64,000 nucleotides of DNA from a virus. The translations under genes and the position numbers were made by a program. Each line of letters begins with the position of its first letter. The first letter of the stretch is position 1. The notes beneath the pieces were generated by a model that was not told where the DNA came from, made no database searches, and saw nothing but the letters and a program-made list of their open reading frames with translations. The stretch lies in the UHGV virus genome UHGV-0174779; one strand, 5' to 3'. Positions 8,343-62,675 of this stretch are shown here, in pieces.

Positions 8343-9884
8343 TTAGTAGCTCTGATTCCATCTGCTTACGTTTGCCTCATACAAAGAAGCGCTTCCGTAG
8401 CTAACATCATGCTTAGAGCGACCACGATGTGTAACAGAGCACGCTGAATAGCGCATTGCATCCATTAAGTCATCATGTTCTTTAATAATCTTACCAACCT
8501 TACGGTGATATCTAGCTTTCTCTTCGAATAGCTTAGCGTTAGCGGCTGTGTTAAAGATTTTAAAGCGTCCACTCATCATTCTTTCACGGATATCTGTGAT
8601 TCCCGGTTCTACAAAGAAGTTCTTTTTACCATCCATTCCAATTTTGTTGTAGAAGGTATCACTCTGTACGTTAACTCCTGCATTCTTATAGAATTGAGCA
8701 ACAGATGAACCACTACCTTTCTCAATATTGTCCGCATCATGCGGTAGGATGACAGGAATCCACTGACCACGACCATTAATAGCTGGAGCATGATACACTG
8801 GAGTAAAGCCACCTTCTTTATATGAGTCGTAAACATAGATAGTATCCGTGTTTGCGTCGTAAGCTGTCCAAACAGCAGCAGTTGGGTGATCAATACCAAT
8901 ATCAATTGCACAGACACGTTTCCACGTATCAGGAATTTCGAATGGTTCACATTTAATTGTGTCATCCGATACATCGTAAATCAAACCACTTCCTAACAAT
9001 GGCATACCTTTTGAACGCATCTCTAATTGCCACGCTGGAATACCTTCAGTCATATCTTTTATATCTTGGTCAGTGATATGTCCACCTAGGTCTGCATGAG
9101 CATCCCACCAAGAAGCATTCTGGAAATATAGAGAACCTGTGTTCTCATCTCCTTCACCTTTCATAAATTTATCTACCAGTTCAGTTAAACCGTTCTCTGG
9201 TGTAGCTGTAATTGTAACTAGACCTTTAGTTGTGAGTGTACGTGTGACGCACTGTGCGAATATAGCCATAGACTCGTATGGATCTTCTTCGTCTAACCAA
9301 ATGTAATCAACTGTTGCACCCATCAATGTGTGTTCACCCTGTTGGGTTGAACGGAATTCTAATGTACTTAAACCGTCAAACTCTCCTCTCTCATTTTGAT
9401 GTTTGATTTGTACGATTTGAAGTTTGTTACCATCTCGTTCTATCGTATCAATGACGATAGCATCACGAGGAATGACACCTGTCCCTAATAAATTTGTATC
9501 CTTTCCGATAGGTGTACCAAACAATTCCTTTTGCAATACTTTCCTTGTGGAATCCCCTGTAATACCAACTGCCCATGCTAAGATAGGTCTTTTAAATTTA
9601 TATCCTGTCCACCAAGTTGGGTAGCGACCTGTGACATGACAAGCAAACTCGTATGCCTCGCTATAAGATTTACCAACACGGTTCGCTGCACACAAGAATC
9701 TAAAGCGATGCTTCAATCCTGCTGCATAAAATTTCTTTTGGAAGTCATACGCCTTGAAAGACAAAATCCTATTATACTTCCTCCATTGGTCACGCTCTTT
9801 CAACATATTCAATAGTGCTTTCTTTTCATCTACACTAAGGTTGTTACCAGTTAGAGCTTCATAAATTTGTTTATCTAATGACAT
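8343..9884 (-). CDS. Terminase large subunit
   Basis: 513 aa; ATPase Walker A-like AANRVGKS, Walker B-like DYIWLDEED, C-terminal nuclease region CAIDIGIDHPTAAV. Confidence 0.85.
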   Translation of the reverse strand: MSLDKQIYEALTGNNLSVDEKKALLNMLKERDQWRKYNRILSFKAYDFQKKFYAAGLKHRFRFLCAANRVGKSYSEAYEFACHVTGRYPTWWTGYKFKRPILAWAVGITGDSTRKVLQKELFGTPIGKDTNLLGTGVIPRDAIVIDTIERDGNKLQIVQIKHQNERGEFDGLSTLEFRSTQQGEHTLMGATVDYIWLDEEDPYESMAIFAQCVTRTLTTKGLVTITATPENGLTELVDKFMKGEGDENTGSLYFQNASWWDAHADLGGHITDQDIKDMTEGIPAWQLEMRSKGMPLLGSGLIYDVSDDTIKCEPFEIPDTWKRVCAIDIGIDHPTAAVWTAYDANTDTIYVYDSYKEGGFTPVYHAPAINGRGQWIPVILPHDADNIEKGSGSSVAQFYKNAGVNVQSDTFYNKIGMDGKKNFFVEPGITDIRERMMSGRFKIFNTAANAKLFEEKARYHRKVGKIIKEHDDLMDAMRYSACSVTHRGRSKHDVSYGSASLYEANVSRWNQSY

Positions 9885-9953: not shown

Positions 9954-10427
9954 TTAACTCTCGTCCGCTTCCTCCCCCTTTTCAGCGTCCTCAGAGTTGT
10001 CTTCTTCTGGAGGCATAACGTCGATACCAAGTGCTCCAGTCAAGAAGTCCTTGATTTGTGCATTCAGTGAATCTTCGTTGATTACATTCTCTTCCTCAAT
10101 CTTAACTTCAACAGAGGCCGCCTTAGGATATACCAGATCTGCAACTTTTGATGCAGCCTTGAATCTAAGATCAGGTGGAATATTGGGATCTTCGTAAATT
10201 TGAATTAACACTTCATCAGGAGACAAATGACTTGCAGCAACACGGTCCAACATTAATTGTGTCAGCTTACCTCTACTACCTTTGGGTCGTCCGAATTTAT
10301 TTCCCTTTTGAAACTTCCCATTGCTTGGGTTCATACCACGGCCTTCAAGTTCTTCCGTTACTCCGGGTAATCTTCCTGTAATCTCAGCTACCTGTGCAGG
10401 CGTGAGTTCTCCGTTTTCTCCAAACAT
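9954..10427 (-). CDS. Terminase small subunit (putative)
   Basis: 157 aa immediately upstream of large subunit; N-terminal basic motif KFGRPKGSRGKLT, acidic C-terminus; AAGGAG RBS. Confidence 0.5.
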   Translation of the reverse strand: MFGENGELTPAQVAEITGRLPGVTEELEGRGMNPSNGKFQKGNKFGRPKGSRGKLTQLMLDRVAASHLSPDEVLIQIYEDPNIPPDLRFKAASKVADLVYPKAASVEVKIEEENVINEDSLNAQIKDFLTGALGIDVMPPEEDNSEDAEKGEEADES

Positions 10428-11624: not shown

Positions 11625-12413
11625 CTACCCGTAAAGGCCACCTCACATTAACACCCGTGAGTATACCTGTATTCCTTTTCGTAGTCTTCTTCAGAGAAGC
11701 TACCATATTCATCTTCAGTCATACATCCCTCTGATAAAAGTTAAAACATAAAGGGGACGTCATGTTAAGGCACTATCACATTAAGGCCATGTCACGTTAA
11801 GGCTACTTCATGTGCAGTATCCAATCCCGTAATTAAACCCTCCATAGTTATATATAAGAGTTTAAAATCCTGATTTGACCGAGTGGGGCTAGCCGCTTCC
11901 CGCGCGTTTCCTAAAAAGGGGGAGTCCTCATTTAAAAAAGGGTTATTGGCAATGCCTTTACACCTCCTTCCACGTTCCAACCTTTCCCCGTGCCTACTCC
12001 CCGTTATTCTTTCCCCGTGTATACTACCCAATACATTACCTACCCGTTTATTTAGTTCCCCTTTAAAGAGTGGATGAGAGGCTAGTCTTCCACTGTACCA
12101 ATAGATTGAGGCGATATAATGCCCATGAGTAATAGTCACAAGCCCCCATAGTTTGAATGTAAATGATTCTAAATGTAATGATTATGAGTGCAATAATGAT
12201 GTATGTATTAATTAAGTGGATGATTGTATTTCTTTTAATAATTTCTTTTATTCCTTTCTTTTTTCAGCGTTCTGTTGGTCTTTTTCTTTTATGAGTTGAT
12301 GATTATTTAAGTGGTATATTACTACCGCACTATCTAGCTACCTTTCCCCGTGGTCTGTCCTGCGGTTGTATGTCCCCGTCCTATATAGATAGTAGAAATA
12401 GTTTACCCGTGGG
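11625..12413 (+). repeat. Cluster of eight same-strand CCCGT(G) repeats
   Basis: tacccgt/acccgtg/tttccccgtg at about 11627, 11653, 11985, 11999, 12013, 12042, 12345, 12374 and 12405, all on the plus strand in the divergent control region. Confidence 0.5.
11758..11805 (+). repeat. Three tandem 16-bp direct repeats (TCAYRTTAAGGC-N4)
   Basis: tcatGTTAAGGcacta / tcacaTTAAGGccatg / tcacGTTAAGGctact, perfect 16-nt periodicity. Confidence 0.5.
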
Positions 12414-12640
12414 CTTGCTTTCCTTATCAGGTAGTGGTAAATTGAATCTATCGATTGAGTGGTTGGAGTAGTAGAGATGATAATCTTAGTAATGATGGTA
12501 ATAGCTGTAGTGCTTCCTTTACTTGCTCTGATTGTTAGTGAAGTGGTTGAGTTGTTCACTGACAAAAGATTAGAAGTAGTTGATAAACCAAGCAAGTTTG
12601 ATGGTGCTCAGTTTAGTAGTAAGAAAGTTGAAATTAATTG

Positions 12641-12669
12641 TTGACATGTTAGGTAGTAAGAAATATATT
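12641..12669 (+). promoter_or_regulatory. Sigma70-type promoter (TTGACA-N17-TATATT)
   Basis: Consensus -35 at 12641-12646 and -10 at 12664-12669, about 40 nt upstream of gene 12711. Confidence 0.5.
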
Positions 12670-12710
12670 TATCTCATTGAAACGAAGCATACCAACTAAA
12701 GGAATCAATC

Positions 12711-13190
12711 ATGAATAAGGCAAACTTTGTAATCGGTGCTCTGGTATTAACCTTCGGTAGCATGGCTATCGCTGACAAGATTGCTAGTGCTCCAGTTGCT
12801 CAAGCTGCTGTAGTCATGAGTGATGCTGCTGACACCTTCGTTAGCAACGCCCCTAAAGGTTGGCTGGTTTGTAAAGGATTGGATTCAGATAATGTCACTA
12901 CGTTGATGAAAGTTAAATTATCTAACGTAACCAATCGTGGCATGGTATTGTCTACTCGTACACTTGACAACCAGAATAATGAGGATATTCTGCTTTCCCG
13001 TAAAGACAATGACCCAGAGTTGATTACTTTTGGCGATGTGCAGACTATTAAAGGTTCTAAAGTTGTGACTAATCTGGTAACATATGGCACAATGCAAGAA
13101 ACCATGTTAGCCACCTCTGTCTACAGTGGGGAAGATAACAGTATTTGGACTTTCCGCTTTCAGATGGGTGATTGTGTTAAAGCAAAATAA
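12711..13190 (+). CDS. Secreted early protein (signal peptide)
   Basis: 159 aa; N-terminal MNKANFVIGALVLTFGSMAIA signal-like segment; AAGGAA RBS. Confidence 0.6.
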   Translation: MNKANFVIGALVLTFGSMAIADKIASAPVAQAAVVMSDAADTFVSNAPKGWLVCKGLDSDNVTTLMKVKLSNVTNRGMVLSTRTLDNQNNEDILLSRKDNDPELITFGDVQTIKGSKVVTNLVTYGTMQETMLATSVYSGEDNSIWTFRFQMGDCVKAK

Positions 13191-13193
13191 TAG

Positions 13194-13222
13194 TTGACAC
13201 GGTTATAGATTGGCAGTATTGT
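13194..13222 (+). promoter_or_regulatory. Sigma70-type promoter (TTGACA-N17-TATTGT)
   Basis: Same architecture and shared leader (ctaaaggaatcaa) as the promoter at 12641. Confidence 0.5.
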
Positions 13223-13257
13223 TACCTCATTAAGACAACACTAAAGGAATCAAGACA

Positions 13258-13587
13258 ATGAAAACTCTGATTGCATCTGCTCTTTTATCTGTAGCTGTTC
13301 TCTCAACTGTAGGATGCTCTTCTTCTCCGCGTCCCAATGGTTGGTGTGCTCTGGAAGTTGAGGGCACTTGTGTGATGCGTTGGAAAGATGGTGTTAAGGT
13401 TCCTGCTGGTGAGATTGATATGAAGTACGAAGGTGCTAGTTGCTCTAATGGTGGATCTGTTGATGAGAAGGCCTATCGTGAGCGTGATATGAAAACACAA
13501 GCTGATTGGAAGAAGTCAGACTTTATTTCCCGAGCAACTCATTGCGGTGGCAACACTTCCACTAAGGGTAAAGAATGGGACATTTAA
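13258..13587 (+). CDS. Lipoprotein (paralog of 21232-21528)
   Basis: 109 aa; lipobox LSTVGC; RPNGWCALEVEGTCVMRWKDGVKVPAGEIDM shared almost residue-for-residue with the ORF at 21232. Confidence 0.65.
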   Translation: MKTLIASALLSVAVLSTVGCSSSPRPNGWCALEVEGTCVMRWKDGVKVPAGEIDMKYEGASCSNGGSVDEKAYRERDMKTQADWKKSDFISRATHCGGNTSTKGKEWDI

Positions 13588-13684
13588 AAAGAAGGGTTTG
13601 TAATACCAGTTCTACTTTGTTATCTTTGATTTTCACGGTGATTGCTACTGCAATTGCTTACTATTTCTTAATTGTTTTGGGAGT

Positions 13685-14051: not shown

Positions 14052-14417
14052 ATGGGTGTTATCAAGTTTGTAGTGAAAGTGATTGTAGGCTTCTTTCTGG
14101 TTGTTCTTCTGTTAGGTGTCCTGCTGTCGTCTATTGGTAGTGTAAAGGCTGCAACGTTCACGCCTGATACTATCGAAGGCTTGCAATGCACCTATCTTAT
14201 AGAAGATTATGAAACTGGTAAAAAGTCACCTAAGGTTATTATTTTACATGTAGAAGATTTTGAGAGTGTCATAACCTACGACAAGTCTATCCACATGACT
14301 AACGAAACCACTGGTAAGCAAATTACGGTCGATCACTTGCTGCGCTCGTCGTTGACGCTCTTTGATGAATCTATGAACGAAATAAAATCCGGTAATGGTC
14401 AGTGTGTAAATCCATAG
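14052..14417 (+). CDS. Membrane protein (N-terminal transmembrane helix)
   Basis: ORF 14040..14417; ATG 14052 with AGGTGA 9 nt upstream; hydrophobic VIVGFFLVVLLLGVLLSSIG. Confidence 0.5.
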   Translation: MGVIKFVVKVIVGFFLVVLLLGVLLSSIGSVKAATFTPDTIEGLQCTYLIEDYETGKKSPKVIILHVEDFESVITYDKSIHMTNETTGKQITVDHLLRSSLTLFDESMNEIKSGNGQCVNP

Positions 14418-14493
14418 GCTTAATCTTTCTGCTGTATTGTGCCGTGGTCATGCCTATGGTCATAATTTATCTGATTCTCTAATCCTTCCTGTG

Positions 14494-14525
14494 AGCCTCC
14501 TAGTGAGGCTTTTCTCATTTCTAAG
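14494..14525 (+). terminator. Rho-independent terminator
   Basis: AGCCTC-ctagt-GAGGCT followed by TTTCTCATTT. Confidence 0.45.
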
Positions 14526-19883: not shown

Positions 19884-20060
19884 ATGTCTAAGCAAACAAT
19901 CAAGAATACGCAAGCTGGTTACTCTTATGTTAACTCTCCTTGCTGTGGTGCTCGTGTTAATCTGGTTAAGGAAGAGGTTCATATCATTCAGCGTGGCGCT
20001 ACTGTTGTTCGTTCATGCTGTGTCTGTGGTAATGACATTTTTATCAAAGGTAAAGTATGA
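19884..20060 (+). CDS. Small zinc-ribbon protein (58 aa)
   Basis: CCGARVN...CCVCGND Cys pairs; AGAGGAAG RBS; stop overlaps next start. Confidence 0.45.
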   Translation: MSKQTIKNTQAGYSYVNSPCCGARVNLVKEEVHIIQRGATVVRSCCVCGNDIFIKGKV

Positions 20061-20329
20061 AAAAGCTTATAATCCTAGTGTGTCTTATCTCTGCATTTGG
20101 CTGTAAGGAAAGGGAGAGTATCTACAAAAGTGACTATGAAAGTTCTGGGTTTTGGTACGGAGGTTTCAGGTCAGAGCCACATACAGCAGATAATATGCTA
20201 TTCTCCGTAAAAAGAAGCTCACAAGAACTTTCTTACTATGCATGTGCCTCTTTAGCTGAAGCTCATACCAAAACATATCCGGACGGTGGTAGAATATATT
20301 GTCTATATCTAGGAAAATGGGAAAACTAA
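20057..20329 (+). CDS. Lipoprotein
   Basis: 90 aa; MKKLIILVCLISAFGC lipobox. Confidence 0.55.
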   Translation: MKKLIILVCLISAFGCKERESIYKSDYESSGFWYGGFRSEPHTADNMLFSVKRSSQELSYYACASLAEAHTKTYPDGGRIYCLYLGKWEN

Positions 20330-20703: not shown

Positions 20704-21219
20704 ATGAAGCTAGATCTAAGTAAAGCAGTTGTTGATAAAGGTGTTGGTTATTTGTATGTGTACCAACCAACACACCCTATGGCCAATAAAGCTGGAAAGG
20801 TGTATGTTCATAGATATGTTGCTCAAAATTTCTACGGTGTCGAACTGAACTCTGACCTAGTGGTTCATCACAAGGATGAGAATAAGTTAAACAACGAACC
20901 ATCTAATTTAGAAATCATGACTTATGAGGAGCATAGCAGGCACCATCATGGGGCTGTCATGGAAGAAAGGTTATGTTCTTTTTGTGGAGAGATTTACCTT
21001 GTTTCAGAGAATAGCAACCAAAGGTTTTGCTCACAGCTTTGTGCCAAATTAGATAGCAGACGGTTTGAAATAACAAAAGAATCTCTTCAGTCTTTAATAG
21101 ACATTTACCCCGTGTATGTAGTAGGGAGGTTACTGAGTGTTAGTGATTCGGCTGTCCATAAGAGATGTAGGATTCTTGGTGTTGTTAAAAAGCCGAAAGG
21201 TTTTTGGTTAACTAAATAG
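20704..21219 (+). CDS. HNH homing endonuclease
   Basis: 171 aa; VHHKDENKLNNEPSNLEIMTYEEHSRHH HNH motif, C-terminal helix-turn-helix-like region. Confidence 0.7.
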   Translation: MKLDLSKAVVDKGVGYLYVYQPTHPMANKAGKVYVHRYVAQNFYGVELNSDLVVHHKDENKLNNEPSNLEIMTYEEHSRHHHGAVMEERLCSFCGEIYLVSENSNQRFCSQLCAKLDSRRFEITKESLQSLIDIYPVYVVGRLLSVSDSAVHKRCRILGVVKKPKGFWLTK

Positions 21220-21231
21220 AATGAGGTAGTT

Positions 21232-21528
21232 ATGAGTTGGGGTGGTGTAATATCCTTAATCTGTATCTTCCTTGTCTGTGTGGTCCTTACAGGCTGCGTA
21301 CAGAGCCGTCCTGATGGATGGTGTGCAGTAGCAGTGGAAGGTGTTTGTGTTTCTCGCTGGCATAAGGGTGAGAAGGTTCCTTCTGGTGAAATTGATATGC
21401 GCTGGAACGGAGCAACCTGCTCTAATGCTAACCCGTCTATCAACGAAGAGAAATCTACGCCAGACAATGTTGTGATTGACACAGCGTTGTGGTGTGGTGG
21501 CTCAGTAAAAACAACCGGTAAGGAGTGA
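21232..21528 (+). CDS. Lipoprotein (paralog of 13258-13587)
   Basis: 98 aa; lipobox LTGC; RPDGWCAVAVEGVCVSRWHKGEKVPSGEIDM. Confidence 0.65.
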   Translation: MSWGGVISLICIFLVCVVLTGCVQSRPDGWCAVAVEGVCVSRWHKGEKVPSGEIDMRWNGATCSNANPSINEEKSTPDNVVIDTALWCGGSVKTTGKE

Positions 21529-21532
21529 TAAT

Positions 21533-48787: not shown

Positions 48788-49958
<1,171 letters not shown>

Positions 49959-60673: not shown

Positions 60674-61705
60674 TTATAGTCCAGCAAAAACCTTAGCTGC
60701 ATTTATTACAGGAACCGATAAATTAACTACAGTGTCAGCTCCTAGGTCGTAATTTTGATCCCACTGAAACAGATACCTTCCATAGCCAGTTCCTATCGCA
60801 GAACCACTCATGGTGTGAGATCTCATTTGCTGATATCTCCATCCACTGCCTTGGCCTTTTATTGCACCTATTCCAGAGGTAAGAGGTATCATGGGGTATG
60901 ACATTCCAGTGTTACCACCTCCTGAGCCTATAAAAGTATCCACAGTGAAAGGTGTTCTGTTAGTAGAGAAGACACATTGTGTGGTACCCGGAGAGTAGAT
61001 ATTCAAACCTCCATTATGTTCCGGAACCCCTGCCCCATTGCAGAATACTGCAACTCTAGCAAACACTGAACCACCCTCATTAGTGTTGCCGTTTACGTAA
61101 GGTCTGTTCTGGTAGACACGAATAACTCTGTCATCAGATGTGTAAGACAGGCCAAGACCTCCATCAGACCAGTTAGCGAACACAACAGCGTTTGCCATAT
61201 TGAACCCACCGATATTTGGTATCTGAAGGGCATTGTTTATGACCCCCTGCCAAGCCCAAATACATTGACCAACAACTCCAGCATCTGATATGGAAAAATA
61301 GTCTGCTGTATTTGAGAAAGTGATTCCGTAATTCCTATCAGCTCTAGGCCAAATTTGATAAACGTTGAACCCACAATCAAACAGGGGGTTACTGCCAGGA
61401 TTCTGGTTCAGAGTAACCCTAAAAGATGAGGCATTTTCTACATAGATGTTATTTACACAATAAACATCAGGGACTAAGTTAGGAGGGACTTCCCATTGCC
61501 AGCACAGAGAACCAGTGGGGACAATAATTATCTGACCACTACCATCCCATCCACTAATAGGGAAAGATCTCCCAGCTCCATTAAAGTTAAAACTCCCTCT
61601 TATACTATTCTTGAACTGAGGGAAAGTACTTCCGCTATCAATAAATAAGGGAGCAGGGGTTGCTGGCCCCGGCCCTACTGGTTGTGCCCATATTCCATAT
61701 GCCAT
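60674..61705 (-). CDS. Tail protein (putative)
   Basis: 343 aa, Gly/Asn/Ser-rich, in tail block. Confidence 0.45.
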   Translation of the reverse strand: MAYGIWAQPVGPGPATPAPLFIDSGSTFPQFKNSIRGSFNFNGAGRSFPISGWDGSGQIIIVPTGSLCWQWEVPPNLVPDVYCVNNIYVENASSFRVTLNQNPGSNPLFDCGFNVYQIWPRADRNYGITFSNTADYFSISDAGVVGQCIWAWQGVINNALQIPNIGGFNMANAVVFANWSDGGLGLSYTSDDRVIRVYQNRPYVNGNTNEGGSVFARVAVFCNGAGVPEHNGGLNIYSPGTTQCVFSTNRTPFTVDTFIGSGGGNTGMSYPMIPLTSGIGAIKGQGSGWRYQQMRSHTMSGSAIGTGYGRYLFQWDQNYDLGADTVVNLSVPVINAAKVFAGL

Positions 61706-61706
61706 A

Positions 61707-62675
61707 TTACCAACTCCCTATTCTAATTCTCAGAGCACCACTTCCATCGTAGAAGTCTATTCTGTTTCCATTCATCCACAACTGTGCCCCACCTGTACCA
61801 CCCATAACAAAATCACCACCAACGGTGAATCTCCAGTTAGTCCCTGACATTGTACCGGCTGTTATTTTATCCGCTGATAGACTTTGGATCTGAGCGTTGG
61901 TTATTGATACATTAGTAATCTGTCCCCACTCAATAGTCGCAGTTGCAATTTGAGCAGAGGTGATAACTACGTTAGTAATGTCAGCAAACTCCATAACAGC
62001 CCTACCGTTCTCAACCTTGAATGGTGTACTTCCTGATGTGCCATCAGATACCACAAACTTATCAGCTGTTACTTGGAATTGGCTTATAGATCCATTGTTT
62101 GTTAACTTTACCCCTGCTGTCTTACCATTTACTGTGGAATTAACACCCCAAGTAGCTTCATACTCAGTTAGTTTCATATACTGAGAAGCACTACCTGTCC
62201 CATTCGTTAAATCAGATTGAATAAGGGCAATCTCTTGTCCTTGATCATTGACGATACCTTCAACAGTTTGAATAGATGCCGTATTGCCTTCTATTGAAGT
62301 CTTAATACCAGACATAGTTGAATCCAATTTGACAGGAGGGCTAACCGAATTATCCCAAATATCATCGGTGGATAGATTACCCATTTGTGTTATGATATCT
62401 GCAATGGCAGTCTCAATCTCTGTCGTAACACGGTTCTCTAGTTCATCGAATTGCAAATTCATAGCATGAAGGGCTTTAATACGAACATCAATCTCCTCAT
62501 GGATTTCATCTATAGCTTGGAACATTTGATTAGTTGCAGTACTAATATTCTGGAGTTCATCATATATTGCAACGTTATTAGTTTCTACACTCTCAGAGGT
62601 GTTTAGAAAGCCCACACTATAAGGTTGTGTTGTGTTGTTTCTTCCGGTATTCTTACGAAAGCCACCAGCACCCAT
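61707..62675 (-). CDS. Tail fibre or tail-associated protein (putative)
   Basis: 322 aa; N-terminal coiled-coil then Thr/Ser/Gly-rich beta-like region. Confidence 0.45.
   Translation of the reverse strand: MGAGGFRKNTGRNNTTQPYSVGFLNTSESVETNNVAIYDELQNISTATNQMFQAIDEIHEEIDVRIKALHAMNLQFDELENRVTTEIETAIADIITQMGNLSTDDIWDNSVSPPVKLDSTMSGIKTSIEGNTASIQTVEGIVNDQGQEIALIQSDLTNGTGSASQYMKLTEYEATWGVNSTVNGKTAGVKLTNNGSISQFQVTADKFVVSDGTSGSTPFKVENGRAVMEFADITNVVITSAQIATATIEWGQITNVSITNAQIQSLSADKITAGTMSGTNWRFTVGGDFVMGGTGGAQLWMNGNRIDFYDGSGALRIRIGSW

Follow-up and report, generated by a model that had tools for sequence, protein, structure and literature searches.

Two small open reading frames (ORFs) on the plus strand of a 64,000-nucleotide stretch of the virus genome UHGV-0174779 (the whole of which we call the window), one at 13258-13587 (copy 1) and the other at 21232-21528 (copy 2), are, judged by their sequences, full-length members of the Rtp45 family of phage lipoproteins, and as such new members of a family that is already known. 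We consider it probable that both are superinfection-exclusion lipoproteins of the Rtp45 type, directed at the LptDE complex, and that LptD is the terminal receptor of the phage that encodes them. This phage is a Kuravirus, and hence one of the Gordonclarkvirinae, the phiEco32/SU10-like prolate podoviruses of E. coli; over 20 kb, its DNA is ~91-92% identical to that of TH06, EK5 and others. Somewhat more cautiously, we also lean towards a wider proposal for the Gordonclarkvirinae as a group (phiEco32, SU10, SU7 and their relatives), namely that they carry a complete LptD module, made up of a tail needle with a J-type tip domain, the DUF6453 receptor-binding protein (RBP) gp19 and Rtp45-type lipoproteins, that LptD is their long-unknown terminal receptor, and that the lineage described here stacks two exclusion alleles. 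An arms race over LptD between phages that infect the same cells may be what lies behind this stacking.

Membership of the Rtp45 family

The family assignment is carried by profile, sequence and structure comparisons that agree with one another. Against PF24052, the 'Phage lipoprotein family' of Pfam, copy 1 scores 106.4 bits (E=7.6e-31) and copy 2 scores 118.5 bits (E=1.2e-34), where the curated cut-off is 27 bits, and the matches run over positions 1-80 and 1-79, respectively, of the 80 in the profile; both copies also fall in phrog_4281. Searched with phmmer against PDB chains, both find 9RPS chain D, which is Rtp45 itself (UniProt Q333D9), with E=5e-21 for copy 1 and E=4.8e-14 for copy 2. 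Their identities to Rtp45, 47% and 43%, both exceed the 35% that separates Rtp45 from SE_Oeko, the superinfection-exclusion protein of Oekolampad (PMC12685063). The family was recovered by a profile search; a word-indexed search of proteins for which copy 1 was the sole query gave only three relatives.

In an alignment of 79 family sequences (a smaller one of 12 was also made), Cys20, Cys30, Cys38, G51, D54 and G59 are invariant, while G19, R25, G28, G36, G45, V48, E52, E106 and W107 are nearly so. The lipid-bearing Cys, Cys30 and Cys38 carry identical residue numbers in copy 1 and Rtp45, and the Cys30-Cys38 pair is present in both copies, where it is predicted to form a disulfide as it does in Rtp45. 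Of the two lipoproteins only copy 1 was given a structure model; this AF2 model, built on the 79-sequence alignment, has strands at residues 37-49 and 51-64 (pLDDT 93-96 there), and when it was compared with the PDB by Foldseek the sole meaningful match was 9rps_D, with a probability of 1.00 and a target-normalised TM-score of 0.79.

What is known of Rtp45 gives these matches their meaning. It is the superinfection-exclusion lipoprotein of siphophage Rtp, and has been visualised by cryo-electron microscopy (cryo-EM) on the Shigella LptDE-LptM complex, where it occupies the periplasmic outer-membrane interface of LptD, flanked by LptE and LptM (Dunbar et al., PNAS 2025, PMC12685063). Its residues 30-35 pair with residues 318-323 of LptD, in a segment stapled by the Cys30-Cys38 disulfide, and its long beta-hairpin ascends the LptD lumen and moves extracellular loop 4 as far as 20 Å out of place, which blocks binding of the RBP (PMC12685063). 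SE_Oeko is encoded beside an LptDE-binding RBP, and the authors assume that it acts on LptD as Rtp45 does (PMC12685063).

The original prediction, which was made from the letters of the window alone, described the two ORFs as paralogues with lipoprotein signal peptides and a common Cys-rich core, and this description is confirmed. Both ORFs are found exactly where it had put them, on the plus strand, each with a Shine-Dalgarno sequence ahead of it (AAGGA for copy 1, GAGG for copy 2), and BLASTP aligns them over their whole length with 42/104 identities (40%, E=8e-24), well outside what chance would give. They are paralogues, as had been stated, but divergent alleles rather than products of a recent tandem duplication. 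The shared motif, RP(N/D)GWCA..VEG.CV.RW..G.KVP.GEIDM ... (S/T)CSN ... CGG, is present in both. The signal peptide of copy 1 is canonical, with K2, a hydrophobic core and TVG-C20 (MKTLIASALLSVAVLSTVG-C20), and satisfies the PROSITE-type rule, whereas copy 2 has the lipobox Cys (LTG-C22, in the same alignment column as C20) but an atypical n-region with neither Lys nor Arg, which is the only clause of the rule that it fails. The Lys/Arg-free n-region is nevertheless conserved among Kuravirus-type members, including those of phiEco32, SU7, TH06 and a Logan contig. In the two copies the +2 residue after the lipid Cys is Ser or Val and never Asp, from which sorting to the outer membrane would be expected.

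Copy 1 can thus be described as a predicted outer-membrane lipoprotein precursor of 109 residues, with a signal peptide at 1-19, the lipid Cys20, the Cys30-Cys38 pair and a beta-hairpin at ~37-64, followed by a 35-residue insertion between Cys63 and Cys98 and then the GKEW motif, here GKEWDI. Copy 2, at 98 residues, has its lipid Cys at position 22, Cys pairs as in copy 1, an insertion of 27 residues and a C-terminus that reads ...GKE. The abrupt end of copy 2 has a simple origin, in that at 21523-21531 the window has GAG TGA TAA where TH06 and the 74-kb Logan contig (L006) have GAG TGG TAA, and this single G>A change leaves copy 2 without the near-invariant C-terminal Trp of the family; the (K/R)EW motif accordingly reads GKE-stop here and GKEW in the TH06 and L006 orthologues. 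The ratio of non-synonymous to synonymous substitution rates is ~0.12 for each copy against its orthologues, with 0.13 as the figure for copy 1, and both genes are therefore kept by purifying selection.

Insertion classes and the origin of the two copies

In all Gordonclarkvirinae members of the family, and in those of a few other lineages, the hairpin is separated from the C-terminal GKEW by an insertion. Two extra Cys bracket it (Cys63 and Cys98 in copy 1), which presumably form a second disulfide, and its length of 21, 27 or 35 residues defines three allele classes. The 27-residue class includes copy 2; copy 1 is of the 35-residue class, which is otherwise seen in Suseptimavirus (SU7 gp098), and is ~70% identical to the Suseptimavirus allele over residues 25-107. 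Copy 1 looks mosaic, because a siphophage-like signal peptide (MKTLIAS...) stands on a body of the 35-residue class.

Copy 2 is 94-96% identical to the sole lipoprotein of dozens of Kuraviruses, and it occupies the syntenic position of phiEco32 gp106, which is a shorter allele of 93 residues. Copy 1 lies within a 1.3-kb segment (12379-13680) at whose place TH06 has a different sequence, and to which none of 50,697 phage records is closely related at the DNA level. On these comparisons the resident Kuravirus gene is copy 2, and copy 1 is an added, divergent allele. A recent tandem duplication is ruled out, the copies being 40-45% identical and 8 kb apart, with copy 1 in a replaced segment. Used as a tblastn query, each paralogue matched a single place in every record but one, across 378 and 386 records, and two-copy genomes are therefore rare (at most one of ~380 records). 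The Logan contig L006 has the same arrangement as the window, with a gene of 158 residues, a copy 1 that is 89% identical and an intact copy 2 ~9 kb downstream; the second gene accordingly marks a small sub-lineage and is no artefact of assembly.

Some further observations touch on these loci. Immediately upstream of copy 2 lies an HNH homing-endonuclease gene (20704-21219, plus strand), where phiEco32 and SU7 have a tRNA-Arg gene, and ARAGORN found zero tRNA genes in the 64-kb window. SU10-like contigs of ~100 kb have a single PF24052 gene, which lies in the first early operon, as copy 1 does. Two such contigs from ENA, L010 (100,570 bp) and L012 (98,267 bp), have a portal and terminase of the SU10 type and encode a PF24052 lipoprotein of 87 residues at 10001-10264; a DUF6453 protein (P0105) is found on a contig of equal length, apparently the very one that carries the PF24052 gene. 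These contigs may represent a larger or more distant relative of the Gordonclarkvirinae with the same module.

A candidate cognate receptor-binding protein

If the two lipoproteins guard LptD, then one would like to find in the same genome an RBP that uses it, and there is a good candidate at 60674-61705 on the minus strand. This gene encodes a DUF6453 protein of 343 residues, the orthologue of SU10 gp19, which tblastn, Pfam, hhalign and Foldseek all mark as a homologue of Rtp44 and RBP_Oeko. Rtp44 matches it in tblastn with E=2e-9; it aligns with DUF6453 (PF20051) over its full length with E=5e-23 (Rtp44 and RBP_Oeko themselves give 1e-113 and 2e-121); it matches PDB 9RPT chain C, which is RBP_Oeko on open LptDE, with E=8e-9; and hhalign pairs it with RBP_Oeko over 278 columns (probability 98.4%, E=8e-15). 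Its AF2 model (pLDDT 87, pTM 0.88) has 9rpt_C as its sole significant Foldseek match in the PDB, with E=3.7e-13 and a TM-score of 0.81. A phmmer search with Rtp44 and HK578 gp23 against the six-frame ORFs of the window gave no match, although the four other methods detect the homology.

RBP_Oeko binds the extracellular face of LptD (PMC12685063), and among small siphoviruses the RBP families specific for LptD, FhuA, BtuB and YncD are mutually unrelated (bioRxiv 10.64898/2026.04.02.716166). The proteins of the T1 RBP locus have no match to DUF6453. Taken together, these last two points make DUF6453 a reasonable marker of LptD specificity.

Directly upstream of the gp19-like gene, at 61707-62675 on the minus strand, is the gene for the tail needle, the orthologue of SU10 gp18, which ends in a Phage_Tail_Tip domain (PF09327, E=3e-21). 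The same domain also ends the J-like central fibres Rtp43 and HK578 gp22, whose genes stand just before the respective RBP genes, and BLASTP matches the needle with Rtp43 (E=2e-6). The shared order of PF09327 and DUF6453 means that the needle and gp19 form a counterpart to the 'J tip plus RBP' arrangement of the LptD-dependent siphophages. The gp19 protein is conserved across the Gordonclarkvirinae, in allele classes of ~97, 88, 70, 60 and 45% identity. Together with the PF24052/Rtp45 homology of the lipoproteins, this co-resident RBP homologue supports the suggestion in the original prediction that the two small lipoproteins are receptor-blocking or superinfection-exclusion factors.

How exclusion would work

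The mechanism that we propose draws on the Rtp45 structure and on homology for expression, export and docking on LptD, and on genome context for the RBP and the receptor. Both lipoprotein genes lie inside the block that is classed as early in SU10 and phiEco32; their own early class is predicted from synteny with the SU10 annotation and from promoter consensus. Given these early-operon promoters, both genes would be expected to be transcribed by host RNA polymerase soon after infection, copy 1 from the first early operon and from its own sigma70-type promoter, and copy 2 as part of a long early operon. The precursors would then be exported, lipidated on the lipobox Cys and, having no Asp at +2, passed by the Lol system to the outer membrane's inner leaflet. 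There the mature lipoprotein would dock at the periplasmic rim of LptD, flanked by LptE and LptM, with the segment stapled by Cys30-Cys38 adding a strand to the base of the LptD barrel and the long beta-hairpin pushed up the lumen. Extracellular loop 4 would be forced outward and LptD locked in its closed state, preventing the binding of phage RBPs.

The RBP that is shut out would be the phage's own gp19-like DUF6453 protein, probably seated on the tail needle's J-type tip domain, and LptD would in that case be the terminal receptor of this Kuravirus. Such a block would spare sister virions a wasteful adsorption to cells that are already infected and to lysis debris, and would shut out many LptD-dependent siphophages as well. 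As for the second gene, an earlier-expressed copy 1 may provide a faster or stronger blockade, may extend coverage to variants of LptD, LptE or LptM, or may serve as a backup for the Trp-less copy 2. An LptD receptor would be invisible to standard knockout or transposon-sequencing screens, because lptD is essential and because these phages also need O-antigen.

Weighing the alternatives

Several points weigh against LptDE-directed exclusion with LptD as the receptor, and they deserve to be set out together. The support for such a role, here and in the Gordonclarkvirinae as a whole, consists of homology and genome context. The current model for the subfamily holds that long fibres recognise O-antigen and that gp12-like short fibres then contact the cell surface (PMC11990801). 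Mass spectrometry of SU10 virions detected 34 proteins, including all the late-operon neighbours of gp19 (gp11-13, 16-18 and 20-24), but not gp19 itself (PMC4281155 Table 2). Nor does the SU10 cryo-EM study mention gp19, so that this protein is missing from both the virion proteome and the structure papers, and its association with the virion is a proposal that is as yet unproven. The pb5 protein of T5 is a single-copy tip protein, and by analogy a single-copy gp19 at the tip could evade proteomic detection. Lipoprotein and gp19 alleles assort independently in the Gordonclarkvirinae: co-variation between them was looked for and not seen, lipoproteins of the copy-2 type occurring with gp19 alleles at 99, 60 and 45% identity, and two lipoprotein types going with the gp19 allele at 97%. 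This independence fits a factor that acts on the conserved periplasmic side of a receptor, but it gives no positive sign of coupling. Copy 2 has its atypical n-region and, in this genome, lacks the terminal Trp; the Cys-bracketed insertion of 21-35 residues, absent from Rtp45, could alter the mode of binding; and if the two copies share one site on LptD, they could not act additively on a single complex.

Many of these same points would suit an explanation in which the lipoproteins serve only to exclude competitors, barring LptD-dependent siphophages (of the types of Rtp, Dhillonvirus and Rogunavirus) found in the same gut or sewage niche, while the Kuravirus itself enters through lipopolysaccharide (LPS) or some other receptor and gp19 has another role. 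The assignment of surface binding to the short fibres, the non-detection of gp19 and the independent assortment of alleles all agree with it, and so does gene order. Rtp, HK578 and Oekolampad each have their lipoprotein gene next to the RBP gene (rtp44, gp23 and gp25, respectively), which follows the J-like fibre gene; in the window the lipoprotein genes lie among the early genes, unlinked from any RBP gene, the RBP homologue being 39-47 kb away and on the opposite strand. Adjacency is not, however, a general rule, since the lipoprotein and DUF6453 genes are likewise unlinked, at a distance of ~10 kb, in the Klebsiella siphophages of the genus Webervirus and in Cronobacter phage ESP2949-1, and Kuravirus and Suseptimavirus both carry PF24052 and DUF6453 unlinked in one genome. 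Every sampled lineage with a PF24052 lipoprotein also has a DUF6453 RBP homologue, and gp19, which occurs throughout the Gordonclarkvirinae, comes immediately after a needle with a J-type tip domain. We therefore regard competitor exclusion as the sole function as unlikely.

It is a good deal less likely that the podovirus branch has kept the fold and the receptor-blocking role but has diverged to another outer-membrane barrel or envelope component. The insertion and its extra Cys pair, which are absent from Rtp45, HK578 gp24 and SE_Oeko, would be in keeping with a new target, as would an identity to Rtp45 of just 43-47%. Yet the strand and hairpin, residues 24-59, are ~60% identical to Rtp45 (by eye) and retain all structural Cys and Gly; SE_Oeko, at 35% identity to Rtp45, sits beside an LptDE-binding RBP gene and is still assumed to act on LptD; and the RBP homologue that shares the genome has the predicted fold of RBP_Oeko.

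A further idea, which we rate as very improbable, if anything a shade more so than the last, is that an early clamp on LptDE serves another end than blocking adsorption, such as halting the export of new LPS and O-antigen or weakening the outer membrane. Rtp45 does partly fill the LptD lumen and keep it in the closed state (PMC12685063), and with O-antigen as the primary receptor (PMC11990801) a changed LPS display could affect adsorption. The idea is, however, pure inference, whereas the documented role of the founding member, Rtp45, is exclusion; a lytic cycle does not last long enough for LPS turnover to clear the O-antigen that is already there, and there is no sign of such a role in the literature examined. 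Finally, that either copy is an o-spanin, a small Cys-containing outer-membrane lipoprotein that completes lysis, is suggested by size, lipobox and several Cys but is effectively refuted, because both are Rtp45 homologues in a block classed as early, no i-spanin gene adjoins either, and the window has its own, distinct o-spanin gene at 48788-49048 (plus strand; 96.5% identical to the curated o-spanin of NJ01), at the position of the overlapped spanin pair of phiEco32 (PMC6139136 supplement).

The early gene block and its neighbours

The structural genes of the window lie on the minus strand at both of its ends, and a plus-strand block of early and middle genes begins at ~12.6 kb. Intergenic promoters of the sigma70 type with a perfect TTGACA are clustered at 12641, 13194, 14777, 14924 and 15100, and this cluster agrees with the early promoter layout of SU10 and phiEco32, in which a single early promoter precedes the first early operon and three lie within the next spacer (PMC4281155). 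The first of those in the window, at 12641-12669 (plus strand, TTGACA-17-TATATT), opens the first early operon and is the counterpart of the promoter before SU10 coding sequence CDS125 (PMC4281155). The second, at 13194-13222 (plus strand, TTGACA-17-TATTGT), is dedicated to copy 1 and ends 36 nt before its ATG; it is followed by a 5' untranslated region and ribosome-binding site homologous to those preceding the ORF at 12711, and it is kept in the Logan contig L006, where the -10 element is TATTAT. The claim that copy 1 sits in an early promoter-gene cassette is supported at the sequence level by these two promoters and the homologous leaders.

The first early operon, which contains the ORFs 12711, copy 1, 13697 and 14052, is closed by a terminator-like hairpin with a T-run at 14493-14511 (plus strand), matching the terminator after SU10 CDS121 (PMC4281155). 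The original prediction had called the protein at 12711 secreted and that at 14052 a membrane protein; both do have N-terminal segments resembling signal peptides, which is a judgement by inspection only. The upstream neighbour of copy 1, at 12711-13190 (plus strand, 159 residues, phrog_21410/36409), corresponds to the C-terminal half of a 290-residue ORF in TH06 (L001 4560-5432); the N-terminal half of that ORF and the next ORF, of 87 residues, are replaced in the window lineage. The ORF at 14052-14417 (plus strand, 121 residues) has an N-terminal signal peptide or membrane anchor and matches phrog_13168, which is labelled 'terminase', a word that many GenBank Kuravirus records also have in their feature annotation for the matching region. 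This label may be a propagated misannotation, and our doubt about it arises because the large terminase is encoded elsewhere (~8343-9884, minus strand).

A third lipoprotein-like ORF, at 20057-20329 (plus strand, 90 residues), begins MKKLIILVCLISAFG-C... and passes the PROSITE-type lipobox rule. It lies inside a 270-bp insertion that is absent from Kuravirus TH06, and searches of Pfam, PHROGs, the 50,697 phage records and the PDB gave no homologue for it; having no homology to the family, it was dismissed as a third PF24052 member. Immediately upstream of this orphan, an ORF of 58 residues at 19884-20060 (plus strand) has two CxxC-like pairs (SPCCG...CCVCG) and is possibly a zinc ribbon.

Why this matters

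As members of a family whose mechanism was worked out in 2025, the lipoproteins are in themselves ordinary, and we think that the receptor prediction is the more interesting by-product. A concrete target (LptDE) and function can now be proposed for a gene that is annotated as 'putative lipoprotein' or 'hypothetical' in >100 Kuravirus genomes of therapeutic candidates, and the gp19 and needle homologies predict a terminal receptor for a whole podovirus subfamily. The broad host range of these podoviruses and their strong resistance to restriction systems make them attractive for therapy. Should the prediction prove true, the essential and conserved nature of LptD would be relevant to phage steering and cocktail design, and one would predict that Kuraviruses and LptD-dependent siphophages shut one another out and select for identical resistance mutations. 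The two-allele arrangement furnishes a natural system in which to look at the limits and breadth of exclusion at one receptor. In the literature that we searched, whose coverage left out most subscription journals, nothing links Kuravirus, Gordonclarkvirinae or phiEco32 with LptD, Rtp45 or DUF6453, and although the lipoprotein family is known, its podovirus context and the prediction of LptD as receptor appear to be unreported.

Comparison with known systems

The Cor proteins of T1, phi80, N15 and HK022 resemble the window lipoproteins in being small phage lipoproteins, encoded near the RBP locus, that inactivate a receptor, and the Rtp genome paper is said to have likened Rtp45 to Cor. They nevertheless belong to another family and act on another receptor, FhuA. 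Membership of Cor was considered for the two copies and rejected, because T1 Cor reaches only 17.7 bits against PF24052 (cut-off 27) and hhalign covers only 20 columns, all of them in the signal peptide. Llp of T5 and its BF23 equivalent offer a functional parallel, each being a small, early, disulfide-containing outer-membrane lipoprotein that works from the periplasmic side of the receptor to alter its extracellular loops and exclude the RBP. The target of T5 Llp, however, is FhuA, a TonB-dependent transporter, and its action, as reported from PMC9586334 by way of PMC12685063, is long-range allostery and not physical displacement of a loop. No sequence similarity between Llp and the window lipoproteins was detected by phmmer among PDB chains: with copy 1 searched against all chains at E<=10, the matches were Rtp45 and three chance ones, none of them Llp (whose chains are assumed to be present there), and Llp membership was rejected.

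Close relatives are the uncharacterised lipoproteins annotated in other Gordonclarkvirinae, which include phiEco32 gp106, the 'putative lipoprotein' of SU10 and SU7 gp098. Copy 2 is syntenic with gp106, while copy 1 differs from all of these in its siphophage-like signal peptide, its own promoter and its other locus. From Rtp45 the window copies differ in length (98-109 residues against 76), in carrying an insertion of 27-35 residues with two extra Cys, and in setting, since they are encoded twice, in podovirus early operons and 39-47 kb from the RBP gene, where that of Rtp45 is adjacent. What they have in common with Rtp45 is PF24052 itself, the position of the lipobox Cys, the Cys30-Cys38 pair, the core RP(D/N)GWCA...G.CV..W..G..VP.GE.D, the C-terminal (K/R)EW (in copy 1; lost in copy 2) and a DUF6453 RBP encoded in the same genome.

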